Source: a virus
Lineage: Duplodnaviria > Caudoviricetes
IMG/VR virus record: IMGVR_UViG_3300035208_003134
Span: 33,891 to 97,890 of that record
Length of the DNA: 64,000 nucleotides
Reading direction: 5' to 3' (one strand)
Part shown: piece by piece, positions 56,037 through 63,984 of the stretch
How positions within the stretch are numbered: position 1 is the first letter of the stretch
How the letters are laid out: every line of letters begins with the position of its first letter
The notes under the pieces: generated by a model
What the model saw: the letters and a program-made list of their open reading frames with translations, nothing else
The model's database searches: none
Told to the model about the DNA's origin: nothing
Position numbers and translations under genes: made by a program

Positions 56037-56273
56037 ATGGAAGAAAAAAGACCGGTTCAAGACAATTATACTTTTGACAATGTTCAGGAAGACGTGAAGA
56101 AGTGTGGCGGCTACTTGATAGCTGTGACCTTTTTAGACAAAGGAATGCTTACTCACCATCTCCTGACCAACAGTTTCCCCACCGGCGACATTGAAATTGC
56201 TATGCGCGAATTAAGTAAGCTGGCTGAGGCGACTAAGAAGGCAAGTGAGAACACAAATGAGCCCAAAAAATGA
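56037..56273 (+). CDS. Hypothetical protein
   Basis: GGAGG RBS before MEEKRP. Confidence 0.55.
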   Translation: MEEKRPVQDNYTFDNVQEDVKKCGGYLIAVTFLDKGMLTHHLLTNSFPTGDIEIAMRELSKLAEATKKASENTNEPKK

Positions 56274-57331
56274 TAAAACTTTTTCAACCGTATGTCCCAA
56301 ATGAAGCCATTGAACAAGTCTCTAAAGTACTATGTTCACCGTGCATAACGCAAGGCTCAAAGGTAGATTTATTTGAATGGGAATTTGCAAGCCTGTTCAA
56401 GGTTGCCAACCCTGTATCTGTAAATTCTGGTACTTCCGCGCTTGAAATTGCCTATGACCTCATAGGTCTGAAGAAAGGGGATGAGGTAATTACGACTCCC
56501 CTGACCTGTGCGGCTACCAATATCCCACTCCTACACAGGAAAGTTAAGATTGTTTGGGCTGATGTCCTTCCAGATACCCTCTGCATAGACCCTCTTGATG
56601 TCCGTAGCAAATTTACCAATAAGACCAAGGCTGTAGTGCAAGTTCACCTTGGCGGTGTAGGGGCTGATGTGGGTAAAGTACACGTGCCGGTGGTTTCGGA
56701 CGCTTGTCAAGCGCTTGGAATTTTTACTGGGGATTATACCTGTTGCTCATTTCAGGCAATTAAGCACATTACGACTGGTGATGGCGGAATGCTTGTGGTC
56801 AATGATATTGAGAAGTACCACAAAGCTAAGCTTATGCGGTGGTTTGGAATTGACCGTGGTAGGCAAATACCAAATGAGTGGCAATCTTACCGGACGCGGA
56901 TGATGAACTTTGATATTGAGGTACTTGGCGGTAAGAAGCATATGAATGATATTAATGCTACTCTGGGATTGGTAGGCTTGTCTTATTATAACGCAATCCT
57001 GAGCCGACGTCAAGAGCTGTTTACTCTGTATAGGAGCAAACTGCAAGGCGTTGACGGCATTAAGATTGTTGATGGTAAAATTAACGCCTGTTGGTTGTTT
57101 ACGCTTTTAGTAGAACGGCGCGACGACTTTGCTAAGATGCTGTTTGATGCTAACGTAGAGACCAATGTCGTAAACGTGAGAAACGATGTGTATAAGATAT
57201 TTGGCGGCAAGAAGGCTGACTTGCCGGTCTTGGATAGCATTTATGACAAATACATTTGCTTGCCGATTGGTATGCACATCAAAGAGGAAGACGTAGAGTA
57301 TATTTGTGATAAAATAAGAAAGGGATGGTAA
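56270..57331 (+). CDS. DegT/DnrJ/EryC1/StrS nucleotide-sugar aminotransferase
   Basis: NSGTSAL, DACQA, SFQAIKHITTGDGG (PLP Lys). Confidence 0.92.
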   Translation: MIKLFQPYVPNEAIEQVSKVLCSPCITQGSKVDLFEWEFASLFKVANPVSVNSGTSALEIAYDLIGLKKGDEVITTPLTCAATNIPLLHRKVKIVWADVLPDTLCIDPLDVRSKFTNKTKAVVQVHLGGVGADVGKVHVPVVSDACQALGIFTGDYTCCSFQAIKHITTGDGGMLVVNDIEKYHKAKLMRWFGIDRGRQIPNEWQSYRTRMMNFDIEVLGGKKHMNDINATLGLVGLSYYNAILSRRQELFTLYRSKLQGVDGIKIVDGKINACWLFTLLVERRDDFAKMLFDANVETNVVNVRNDVYKIFGGKKADLPVLDSIYDKYICLPIGMHIKEEDVEYICDKIRKGW

Positions 57332-57332
57332 G

Positions 57333-58046
57333 ATGAAGACAGAGACGTTGATTATAGGAAACGGAGAAGTTGGTTCGGCTTTGCAGGCTGTTCTTTCTAA
57401 AGGTCACGCTCCAATTTTTATGAAAGACCTGCACGATTTGAAATTGCAGGACATTGGATGGATGCATATTTGTTTCCCATACAACAAAGATTTTATTAGG
57501 GCTACTAAAGATTACATTACGAAGTATAAGCCACTCTATACGATTATTCACTCCACAGTTCCGGTTGGTACTACAAGTAGATTAAGACGGGACTTGGGGG
57601 TTAACATATGGCACTCTCCTATTAGGGGCGTGCATCCCAATATCGCTCAAGGCATTTTAACCTTCCCAAAGTATATAGGTGGGGAGTATAACAGCGAAGT
57701 TGCGGAGTACTTTAAAGCCTGTGGAATACACGTAATTTACGCAAGTTGTTCGGAGAATACTGAATTGGCTAAACTCTTAGACACAACCTATTATGGTTGG
57801 AATATAGTCTTCTGCAAGGAAGTGGAGAAGATGTGCAAGAAATACGGCGCAGACTTTTCAATGGTCTATCATTCTTTCAACACTACTTATAATGAGGGTT
57901 ACGCCAAGTTAGGTATGCCAAATGTGGTAAGACCGATTTTGTTTCCAAACCCTGGCAAGATAGGCGGCCACTGCGTAATCCCAAATTGCAAGTTGTTGAA
58001 GGAAAAGGTAGCTAAGATAATTTTGAAGTTTAATAAGAAGTACTAA
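57333..58046 (+). CDS. UDP-glucose/GDP-mannose dehydrogenase family protein (short form)
   Basis: IIGNGEVG, HSTVPVGT, ELAKL, IGGHCV. Confidence 0.8.
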   Translation: MKTETLIIGNGEVGSALQAVLSKGHAPIFMKDLHDLKLQDIGWMHICFPYNKDFIRATKDYITKYKPLYTIIHSTVPVGTTSRLRRDLGVNIWHSPIRGVHPNIAQGILTFPKYIGGEYNSEVAEYFKACGIHVIYASCSENTELAKLLDTTYYGWNIVFCKEVEKMCKKYGADFSMVYHSFNTTYNEGYAKLGMPNVVRPILFPNPGKIGGHCVIPNCKLLKEKVAKIILKFNKKY

Positions 58047-62306: not shown

Positions 62307-62935
62307 TAGACCAAAATGAAGCAGTAAAGTTTGTTCACTCGCGTTCTTGGTATCAGACTATTGATTTTGGTGACGGCTTGATATCTAAAGGTTGCGACTG
62401 GTGTGGTGAAATGGCTTGGGACGTTATGAAGAAATTCTTACCACCCTCTATGGAAGGAATGCGAGTCCTTGACTTGGGCTGTAATGCCGGTCTGTTCTGT
62501 GTAAAGTCTGCCCTTTTAGGCGCTAAAGAGGCTATTGGAATAGACTGGAGTGGTTGGCGTCCGAAGTGGGACTTTGAGGAGCAGCGCGAGTTTGTGAAAA
62601 ATTATTTTGAGGGTAAGTCCGGCAAGAAGCTACCGATAACTTACATCTCCGGTAAAATGGAAGAAGTCCTGCAGACCCAAAATTTAGGCGAGTTTGATTA
62701 TGTATTTGCAATAGCTTCCATTTATTATTCGGCATTGCCAGGTGAGACAGTTCAGGCTATCTCTAAGATTGCTAAGAATGTCATACTCCGGCTTAGGGAT
62801 GACAATAGGATAGCTTTGTTTACCGGCTTGTTTAAACAATACGGGTACAAACAAGTAGAAGTAATTCGGGAGAAGTGTTGGGAGAAATTAGGGGGAGAGA
62901 CCGACGACTTCTATATGTACCTTTATAGTAGATGA
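62303..62935 (+). CDS. Class I SAM-dependent methyltransferase (CmoB/DUF1698-like)
   Basis: WYQTID; RVLDLGCNAG; FDYV. Confidence 0.8.
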   Translation: MIDQNEAVKFVHSRSWYQTIDFGDGLISKGCDWCGEMAWDVMKKFLPPSMEGMRVLDLGCNAGLFCVKSALLGAKEAIGIDWSGWRPKWDFEEQREFVKNYFEGKSGKKLPITYISGKMEEVLQTQNLGEFDYVFAIASIYYSALPGETVQAISKIAKNVILRLRDDNRIALFTGLFKQYGYKQVEVIREKCWEKLGGETDDFYMYLYSR

Positions 62936-63414
62936 GGGGTGCTTTCCCTCACGACGTGTTCTATTACAGGATAGTTGAACACCACCGGTTTTTGACCGGA
63001 AATGAAGTTCCTGTAAATGTAAAACAGCTCTATAAGATAGTTGGGACTGAACGCAAGCCGGACAAGTGGGGCACAATGTTGTGCGATAAGTGCGTGACTC
63101 ACATTAGGCTTGGCGATATCCTTGGTATTGGAGGCAGAGCTGCGAAGATAACGGATGAAATGAAGAAGCGGTATCCTTGGGATGCCCTTGTTGCGTCAAT
63201 AATAAAAGAAGGCATAAAAGTTCCGGTCGTACTGGAGAGGTACTTCATAAAAGGCAAGAACTGGTACAAGCCGGTAGAAGGTAAGCACAGAGTTACTGCT
63301 TGTTCGTTGATAGAGCCGTTTAGTAACGAAGTACTGATACCGGCAATACTTGTAGATAGAGATAATGTCTTTTCAGATTATATGTCTGATGAGGCAAAAC
63401 ATCCAGGGTGGTAG
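62932..63414 (+). CDS. ParB/Srx-like domain protein
   Basis: LVASI.KEGIK.PV...VEGKHRV. Confidence 0.6.
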   Translation: MRGAFPHDVFYYRIVEHHRFLTGNEVPVNVKQLYKIVGTERKPDKWGTMLCDKCVTHIRLGDILGIGGRAAKITDEMKKRYPWDALVASIIKEGIKVPVVLERYFIKGKNWYKPVEGKHRVTACSLIEPFSNEVLIPAILVDRDNVFSDYMSDEAKHPGW

Positions 63415-63984
63415 ATGAAGAGCTCATACATTGAAAACAACTACGGTGAAATTTTTTACCAACTGGCAAAGGCTTATCCACCTGCAATAGCAGTTGAGTT
63501 AGGTGTGCTTGATGGTTATAGCCTGCTCCACATTGCCAGAGCTATTAAAGTAAACAGGCAAGGGCATATAGACGCCTATGACCTGTTTGAGGATTACGAG
63601 TTCAACCACGGCGTCCAAGCTGAAGTTCAGGCTCTGTTAGACAAAGAAGGCTTAGGCGAGGTTGCTACCCTGTACAAAGGTGATGCTTATGAAGCGTATA
63701 AGAAATATGCCGATAACTCGGTGCATTTGCTACATATTGACATCTCCAACACCGGCGAGACAGTACGCAAGGTGATGGAACAGTGGGACTCTAAGATGGT
63801 TTATGGCGGCCTCATAATTTTTGAGGGTGGCTCTGAAGAGCGCGACAACATTGAATGGATGGTCAAATATAAAAAAGAGCCAATGAAGTCAGAGATTGAG
63901 ACTAATAAAATTGTCAATAGCAAGTACATTTATGGCACTTACCTTAAATACCCAAGCTTGACTGTTATGATGAGGAGTGGGTAG
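63415..63984 (+). CDS. Class I SAM-dependent methyltransferase (Methyltransf_24-like)
   Basis: VELGV.DGYS, AYDLF, LLHID. Confidence 0.75.
   Translation: MKSSYIENNYGEIFYQLAKAYPPAIAVELGVLDGYSLLHIARAIKVNRQGHIDAYDLFEDYEFNHGVQAEVQALLDKEGLGEVATLYKGDAYEAYKKYADNSVHLLHIDISNTGETVRKVMEQWDSKMVYGGLIIFEGGSEERDNIEWMVKYKKEPMKSEIETNKIVNSKYIYGTYLKYPSLTVMMRSG

Follow-up and report, generated by a model that had tools for sequence, protein, structure and literature searches.

The virus contig IMGVR_UViG_3300035208_003134 (Caudoviricetes; 97,890 bp, a single contig rated complete by CheckV) carries, between its genes for the major capsid protein and the head-tail adaptor, a cassette of ≈11.3 kb that encodes glycosyltransferases (GTs), sugar-tailoring enzymes and methyltransferases. 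The DNA under study, referred to as the window, comprises the last 64 kb of this contig (positions 33,891–97,890). The cassette probably directs the O-glycosylation, in the host cytoplasm, of poly-serine (poly-Ser) tags on proteins of the virus particle, initiated by a TibC-like GT9 domain, and we infer the chemistry of the glycan. A first-pass annotation of the window had proposed such a phage-built cytoplasmic glycan on virion proteins, and the proposal passed every comparative test that was run, which lends it comparative support at the level of sequence.

Apart from two mismatches, the terminal ≈159 nt of the contig are identical to a stretch at its start. The contig must hence be a circle or have terminal repeats, and any gene that leaves the end of the window resumes at contig position 1. 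Coordinates marked G000:C1 follow the contig numbering past this junction, while unmarked coordinates follow the numbering of the window. The cassette runs from window position 55731 across the junction to G000:C1:3098 (Table 1).

Poly-Serine Tracts and Cassette in Related Phages

Four proteins encoded by + strand genes of the structural region contain poly-Ser in their coding frame, with 36 tract segments and 708 amino acids (aa) altogether. One is a stand-alone protein of 474 aa. In the other three, poly-Ser takes up the last 19 residues of a 278-aa protein encoded upstream of the tape-measure gene, the last ≈180 residues of a 328-aa protein encoded after it, and ≈200 internal residues of a 1,199-aa protein. 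The runs are nearly pure Ser punctuated by Cys-Arg. All six Ser codons occur in the tracts, AGY codons accounting for about half. Simple repetition of the DNA would not give this mixture, which shows selection at the level of the protein.

Three complete relatives, G001 (with a 90% identical capsid protein), G002 and G003, lack every gene of the cassette. They contain no poly-Ser tract, a single tract of 12 aa and no tract, respectively. Their orthologs of the three tagged tail proteins align only with the non-Ser parts, and those of the 328-aa protein are open frames of 143–162 aa. A search of IMG/VR with the capsid protein gave 13 related loci (65–91% identity). Only one of them, L005, shares parts of the cassette: it encodes the 96-aa open reading frame (ORF), a homing endonuclease and a DegT aminotransferase that is 70% identical to the present one. 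Where the present phage has the 474-aa gene, L005 alone among these relatives encodes a poly-Ser protein, which has the same N-terminus. The others have (G-Y-S)n collagen-like proteins there, with the same short N-terminal domain and its NGD(F/L) motif.

The 474-aa protein had been singled out in the first-pass annotation as the obvious acceptor of the glycan. Its co-variation with the cassette agrees with this. The set of putative acceptors is wider, however, as three tail-region proteins also carry tracts. We propose that it is the main glycan acceptor and a head fibre.

The Cassette in Unrelated Phages

The conserved core of the cassette consists of the DegT gene, the signature gene for a fusion of GT9, methyltransferase and GT4 domains, one or two Methyltransf_24 genes and the genes for two GT-A-fold paralogs. 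Megablast with the cluster and tblastn with the fusion found no match among 50,697 cultured-phage records. A scan of IMG/VR with the single fusion sequence gave no match either, whereas a scan with the family profile found 26 loci. More than 120 full-length clusters of fusion homologs (50–92% identity) could be identified in metagenomes. Among 185,579 prokaryote species genomes there was one true match, on a 67-kb contig of a metagenome-assembled genome (MAG), and the family is nearly restricted to contigs of phages. The flanks of these 27 loci (26 from IMG/VR plus the MAG) were inspected over ±10 kb. Their contigs range from ≈41 kb to 215 kb and none has a capsid or portal like that of the present phage; the cassette is thus common to unrelated phage lineages.

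Gene order is conserved in these loci. A poly-Ser-tailed protein is followed, sometimes after RmlB, by DegT, the fusion, Methyltransf_24, a 107-aa ORF, a second Methyltransf_24 and the two GT-A paralogs, after which further poly-Ser-tailed proteins occur. DegT lies immediately upstream of the fusion in 18 of the 27 loci (55–68% identity), and homologs of the 189-aa Methyltransf_24 enzyme are present in 14 (42–55% identity). RmlB was found within ±10 kb in six. Homologs of the 210-aa methyltransferase occur in L026, L028 and L036 (55–63% identity), adjoined by homologs of the 160-aa ORF in L028 and L036. The 237-aa dehydrogenase-like gene is absent from all 27.

Poly-Ser tracts on the coding strand were found in 24 of the 27 fusion loci and in none of the 12 cassette-free loci of capsid relatives (Fisher p ≈1e-7, for loci that are phylogenetically non-independent). 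Profiling the cluster against poly-Ser genes, as had been suggested on the basis of the window alone, thus bore out the association. Most tracts in the fusion loci are C-terminal tails of 50–330 aa, and a DUF2612 phage protein is among the proteins that carry them. A further type of tagged protein consists of a ≈175-aa helical-repeat domain without a Pfam match, 100–170 Ser residues and a short Q-A-V-x end, and its gene immediately precedes RmlB or DegT in many copies of the cassette. It looks like a dedicated substrate gene of the cassette.

The co-occurrence could be real without poly-Ser being the acceptor. The tracts might be linkers or spacers, or the target of another modification, and the glycan might be placed on folded capsid or tail domains, on a small molecule or on a lipid. 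We consider this unlikely, since proteins that are otherwise orthologous gain no sequence feature but poly-Ser along with the cassette, and a poly-Ser-tailed protein lies directly upstream of the enzymes in many loci. TibC, the closest protein-modifying GT9 relative, moreover hyper-glycosylates Ser (PMC4358343). Two points speak for an acceptor other than poly-Ser: in mycobacteriophages it is ordinary capsid and tail-tube subunits that bear the glycans, at their C-termini (PMC12619734), and the GT-A paralogs of the cassette lack a canonical DxD motif.

The Fusion Protein

The fusion protein (960 aa) is predicted to be soluble by a hydrophobicity heuristic. It contains an N-terminal Cys/His extension (residues ≈1–68), a GT9-fold domain with a Cys cluster (≈69–390), a class I O-methyltransferase-like domain (≈420–570) and a GT4-like domain (≈625–955). 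The extension of ≈68 residues forms two short strands and one helix in the model. A fold search with a model of residues 1–420 (mean predicted local distance difference test, pLDDT, 79.5) gave the Veillonella GT9 enzyme 3tov (Z 22.3), TibC (Z 20.2 and 20.0), WaaC (19.0) and WaaF (18.9), and the longest alignments were those to TibC (281–287 residues). The chloroplast NDH-PSI subunit chains 7wff_a and 9grx_1 matched at Z 15.5–16. The best non-GT9 bacterial enzymes, UDP-GlcNAc 2-epimerases and antibiotic GT-B transferases, reached Z ≤11. The modeled N-domain is a GT9 fold, closest within GT-B to the ADP-heptose heptosyltransferases, and the JGI label on homologs of the fusion is "ADP-heptose:LPS heptosyltransferase" (LPS, lipopolysaccharide). 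Searches of PDB sequences with a whole-family profile and with an N-domain profile did not place the GT9 domain; the sole match of the latter profile, a T-cell receptor chain, was dismissed as chance.

Alignments of 32 and of 20 homologs show no variation in the pair G79-D80, which comes after the first strand of the GT9 domain and may correspond in position to the catalytic Asp of GT9 enzymes. The catalytic Asp of WaaC is Asp13, at the start of the N-lobe. Five further invariant residues (C331, C336, C339, C344, and C355) fall within an insertion in the C-lobe. With a profile of 32 homologs, the middle domain was found to resemble the small O-methyltransferases 3ntv (E 1e-5) and 3r3h in the PDB. 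The family profile likens the C-terminal domain to the GT4 enzyme BshA (2jjm, E 3e-6, residues 818–937). PF00534 (Glycos_transf_1) matches the fusion itself weakly (24.1 bits against a cut-off of 26.4, E 3e-5, residues 879–924), and precomputed PF00534 matches are present on many of its homologs.

The GT9 family is classically that of the LPS-core heptosyltransferases, two of which, WaaC and WaaF, match the fusion at Z 18–19, and enzymes of the DegT and RmlB kind commonly belong to pathways for O-antigen sugars. The cassette might accordingly alter the LPS, the capsule or a protein of the host surface, either in infection or in lysogeny, and block superinfection or change the serotype, as seroconverting phages do. 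Such a role seems quite unlikely to us. It needs membrane steps, and by the hydrophobicity heuristic none of the cassette proteins has a membrane segment and no ORF exceeds four hydrophobic segments in the genome, which thus encodes no polytopic membrane protein of the Wzx, Wzy, WaaL or GtrA kind. The earlier remark that no flippase or polymerase is visible in the window therefore holds, by the same heuristic, across the whole 97.9-kb genome. The cassette also lies inside a head-to-tail morphogenesis operon, and modification of the host surface leaves the co-variation of poly-Ser on virion proteins with the cassette unexplained.

Sugar-Tailoring Enzymes and Methyltransferases

The DegT protein matches Pfam PF01041 over its full length (234 bits, cut-off 19.8; profile positions 5–360 of 360). 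Its nearest structures are 4zwv, 4xau and CalS13 (4zas), with E 1e-47 to 1e-43, followed by TlmJ and ArnB. No NCBIfam equivalog cut-off was reached, the best model being PseC with 167 of 423 bits, and the keto-sugar substrate is therefore left without assignment. The RmlB-like dehydratase likewise falls below the cut-off of its equivalog TIGR01181 (260.4 against 365.1 bits). Its top ten PDB matches are all dTDP-glucose 4,6-dehydratases (best 6bi4, E 4e-53), and judging from its sequence it probably works like RmlB. The annotated start of its gene overlaps the end of the endonuclease VII gene by 42 nt; the true start may lie after 61290.

The 237-aa protein had been listed in the first-pass annotation as a nucleotide-sugar dehydrogenase. 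It contains the motifs GNGEVG (a GxGxxG Rossmann start), STVPVGTT and GGHC and matches the UDP-glucose/GDP-mannose dehydrogenases in the central domain and part of the N-domain. The protein stops after the Cys motif, where the C-terminal UDP-binding domain would start, and is thus not a full dehydrogenase of this type. We considered and rejected a truncated relic: the family of the protein comprises more than 4,500 clusters, whose members all measure ≈230–240 aa, and the protein is therefore intact and not a fragment. Members of the family occur on the contigs of the closest fusion homologs. They are uncharacterised and often carry the source labels Patescibacteria, Wolfebacteria or Paceibacterota. 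The DegT, fusion and RmlB-like genes and the two methyltransferase genes listed together with it were all retained.

The model of the 314-aa protein (pLDDT 85) has a GT-A fold, with matches to B3GNT2 (6wmo, E 2e-7, probability 1.0, template modeling score ≈0.42) and to the collagen galactosyltransferase and glycogenin folds; the 348-aa protein is its paralog. A PDB sequence search with the 189-aa methyltransferase gave no match, and neither did family searches with the 96-aa and 160-aa ORFs.

One of the Methyltransf_24 enzymes has a weak PHROG match with the label DNA methyltransferase, and phage GTs of both the GT-A and the GT-B fold hypermodify DNA according to a preprint (bioRxiv 10.1101/2023.12.21.572611). 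That the cassette glycosylates the phage DNA to evade restriction, as happens in T4 and in phages whose 5-hydroxymethyl pyrimidines are glycosylated, is nevertheless very improbable. The cassette lies among structural and not replication genes, and its presence tracks poly-Ser protein tails. Glycosylated DNA would call for a hydroxymethyl-pyrimidine as acceptor base, and we found no gene of the thymidylate-synthase or dCMP-hydroxymethylase type in the genome. There was no Tet/JBP match in the genome either, which is weak evidence since the control of this search was silent.

Elsewhere in the genome, on the minus strand, a DesII-like radical S-adenosylmethionine (SAM) protein of 896 aa with a hydrophobic N-terminus is encoded at G000:C1:21675-24365 (L002:3675-6365). 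DesII is its best family (103 bits against a cut-off of 450). DesII itself is the dTDP-4-amino-4,6-dideoxy-D-glucose ammonia-lyase, with a substrate that is the product of RmlB and a DesI-type DegT enzyme. The radical SAM protein could in principle act on the product of DegT, yet its gene sits in another module on the opposite strand and accompanies the fusion only in L030, where it follows the fusion gene.

Proposed Pathway

We propose that the cassette is a portable set of late genes that would glycosylate the particle proteins of the phage before or during assembly, in the host cytoplasm. The GT9 domain would initiate on Ser hydroxyls in the manner of TibC and AAH, possibly from host ADP-heptose, and the GT4 domain and the two GT-A enzymes would elongate the glycan. 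DegT would convert a nucleoside diphosphate (NDP)-4-keto-6-deoxyhexose into an NDP-4-amino-4,6-dideoxyhexose. The keto sugar would here be supplied by the RmlB-like dehydratase from host NDP-glucose, and in other phages by host pools. Four methyltransferase modules may methylate hydroxyl or amino groups of the sugars. The product could be a mucin-like brush, for shielding or adhesion, on the 474-aa head fibre and on the proposed tail tube, distal tail and tail hub proteins.

It is plausible that the phage makes unusual methylated sugar donors, as the first-pass annotation had suggested, although RmlB is missing from most flanks. Neither RmlA nor any other nucleotidyltransferase is encoded in the 97.9-kb genome, and the first sugar donor must therefore come from the host.

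Several observations weigh against O-glycosylation of the poly-Ser tags by the proposed route. The tagged tail proteins are named by gene order and not by family matches. The fusion has no match to the Pfam GT9 model (Glyco_transf_9, PF01075) at E ≤0.01, and its GT9 assignment therefore rests on the predicted fold. The model is at its least confident where the Cys cluster lies (residues 330–339, pLDDT <50), so the suggestive likeness of this cluster to the iron finger of TibC is one of position only. The GT-A paralogs have an invariant N-G-D at the usual DxD position and could thus lack activity or be atypical enzymes. In 21 of the 27 fusion loci there is no RmlB within 10 kb, and no nucleotidyltransferase is encoded, so the amino-sugar route would depend on host pools. 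Finally, there is no poly-Ser within reach in the fusion loci L029, L030 and the short L033.

More tentatively, we suggest that poly-Ser might be a portable glycosylation tag, such that one soluble cassette could coat any structural protein with a Ser run and move horizontally between unrelated phages together with its substrate gene, using a TibC-like initiator and a methylated amino-deoxy cap. Virions would then have a modular and programmable coat of mucin-like character.

Gene Layout and the Swappable Island

The genes of the cassette are tightly packed, with stops and starts that overlap or abut, and all lie on the + strand, co-oriented with the structural genes as had been seen at first. 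A promoter and terminator scan of the region gave no signal above shuffled controls. The first-pass annotation had ended the cluster at 63984, while in fact it crosses the contig junction and extends as far as the head-tail adaptor gene. The cluster was also said to lie directly downstream of the capsid gene, but a cold-shock-domain gene and the 96-aa ORF intervene, and the endonuclease VII gene at 60949-61290 had been overlooked. Further upstream, a 537-aa protein encoded after the portal gene (46285-48192), at window 48885-50498, has a Mu-F-like C-terminal domain (E 3e-7). The closest cultured relative of the portal is that of Thermus phage phiYS40 (26% identity).

Distant capsid relatives have the adaptor gene ≈120–190 nt after the capsid gene, and the 11.3 kb are thus an insertion at a fixed site. 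Homologs of the cold-shock gene follow the capsid gene in L003-L008 and L014. Closer relatives carry other cargo at the same site: GT2 enzymes, GT2-methyltransferase fusions, small GT9-like proteins and very long collagen-repeat proteins, with a radical SAM enzyme and a carbohydrate-binding protein in addition in one of them. GT2, GT2-methyltransferase and small GT9-like enzymes lie beside collagen-repeat proteins (442 to at least 1,460 aa) at L006:14913-18017, L008:5332-9714 and L014:15562-16890. The islands of these sister phages may represent a parallel "fibre plus glycosylation kit", and together with the present cassette they suggest that a fibre and its glycosylation enzymes form a general, swappable module in this phage group.

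In L005, a NUMOD3 homing endonuclease lies between the homolog of the 96-aa ORF and DegT. The cassette seems to serve as a vehicle for selfish endonucleases (endonuclease VII here, NUMOD3 in L005), a pattern that fits a mobile module. In L014 an interruption of ≈730 bp divides the capsid gene at residues 144 and 141 of the match (L014:9270-10001), possibly an intron or homing element.

TABLE 1. Features of the cassette, its surroundings and related loci. Coordinates are window positions unless marked as contig positions or prefixed with a locus.
Feature	Coordinates	Strand	Evidence and remarks
Stand-alone poly-Ser protein, 474 aa	50931..52355	+	≈80% Ser, short folded N-terminus
Major capsid protein, SU10-type	54660..55646	+	Pfam SU10_MCP E 8e-19; upstream anchor of the island
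Cold-shock-domain protein, 73 aa	55731..55952	+	Pfam CSD E 5.5e-24; first gene of the island
96-aa ORF	55983..56273	+	No family match; stop overlaps DegT start; homolog upstream of DegT in L005
DegT/DnrJ/EryC1 pyridoxal phosphate-dependent sugar aminotransferase	56270..57331	+	Pfam E 4e-69; core cassette gene
Short nucleotide-sugar dehydrogenase relative, 237 aa	57333..58046	+	Pfam UDPG_MGDP_dh central domain E 3e-7; accessory
GT9-methyltransferase-GT4 fusion, 960 aa	58065..60947	+	Fold search and PDB profile; signature gene of the cassette
Endonuclease VII (HNH-type)	60949..61290	+	Pfam Endonuclease_7 E 7e-21; between fusion and RmlB-like gene
RmlB-like NDP-glucose 4,6-dehydratase (short-chain dehydrogenase/reductase)	61248..62306	+	TIGR01181 260 bits; accessory
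Class I SAM methyltransferase, 210 aa	62303..62935	+	Pfam Methyltransf_23, _25, _9, E 7e-9 to 1e-3; accessory
160-aa ORF	62932..63414	+	No family match; accompanies the 210-aa methyltransferase
Methyltransf_24-type SAM methyltransferase, 189 aa	63415..63984	+	Pfam E 2e-17; core cassette gene
107-aa ORF	contig 146-469		Past junction
Second Methyltransf_24 enzyme	contig 456-1097		Past junction
GT-A-fold paralogs, 348 and 314 aa	contig 1090-2136 and 2154-3098		Past junction
Head-tail adaptor gene	contig 3073-3894		phrog_442 E 1.5e-12; end of cassette
(G-Y-S)n collagen-like proteins	L006:≈6230-7900, L003:≈1080-1590, L004:≈1730-2560, L014:≈6080-6930		Cassette-free relatives
Helical-repeat poly-Ser protein	L016:6612-7550, L022:7513-8559, L034:7528-8559, L035:6231-7256, L027:953-1843, L031:7685-8539, L036:6558-7562		

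Implications

If the proposed function is correct, virion glycosylation would be widespread in uncultured phages, given the more than 120 homolog clusters of the signature enzyme, and a poly-Ser tag together with the cassette would be a rule that can be read from sequence. This bears on how phages shield their particles or make them stick in sediments and groundwater, and on the reading of low-complexity ORFs, which gene callers tend to drop. The soluble enzymes might also be put to use for dense protein O-glycosylation in bacteria. Full-text literature searches on polyserine or serine-rich phage glycosylation found no prior description.

Comparison With Known Systems

To our knowledge, virion glycosylation has been demonstrated experimentally only in a few mycobacteriophages. 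In Corndog, the genes for the glycosylation enzymes lie among the structural genes. According to two reports, the mycobacteriophages Che8, Corndog and Myrna use phage GTs to O-glycosylate their own capsid and tail-tube subunits at the C-termini (PMC12619734, PMC12363180). The present phage would follow the same principle but differs in several features. The putative acceptors are poly-Ser tags of 19 to ≈450 residues together with a stand-alone poly-Ser protein. The enzymes are unrelated and have no sequence match to cultured phages. In addition, the cassette contains sugar-nucleotide tailoring enzymes and four methyltransferase modules, and it appears to move horizontally between unrelated lineages.

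TibC, the Ser-O-heptosyltransferase of an E. coli autotransporter, has a four-Cys iron finger in the C-lobe (Cys339/342/358/370) and the catalytic base Asp110 (PMC4358343). TibC and AAH belong to the bacterial autotransporter heptosyltransferase family (BAHT; PDB 4rap, 4rb4), whose members are soluble and cytoplasmic, hyper-glycosylate many Ser residues of one substrate, and have an N-terminal β-barrel and a dodecameric ring (PMC4358343). The fusion resembles TibC and AAH in its GT9-type GT-B fold, the extra N-terminal module and the Cys-rich insertion in the C-lobe. In contrast, it shares only ≈15–16% identity with TibC without a match at the sequence level, its N-terminal module is a short Cys/His element and not a β-barrel, and its GT9 domain is joined to methyltransferase and GT4 domains. 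A relationship specific to TibC is not established, as the modeled initiating domain matches TibC about as closely as 3tov and WaaC/WaaF.

The serine-rich repeat glycoproteins of Gram-positive bacteria are also O-glycosylated in the cytoplasm, by the soluble GT-B enzymes GtfA/GtfB (GT4), and extended by GTs encoded in neighbouring genes. They differ in being exported adhesins with SecA2/Y2 partners and dipeptide Ser repeats, whereas the present system would act on virion substrates with nearly pure Ser runs and Cys-Arg, using a GT9-like initiator. A further parallel exists in the viosamine/rhamnose genes of Mimivirus and the anthrose of Bacillus BclA, where a 4,6-dehydratase and a DegT-type aminotransferase produce a 4-amino-4,6-dideoxyhexose. 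This sugar, methylated or acylated, ends up on a repetitive surface fibre protein, the Mimivirus fibril or BclA. These systems belong to other hosts and use collagen-like repeats or fibrils, not poly-Ser, and their homology to the present cassette is limited to generic enzyme families.

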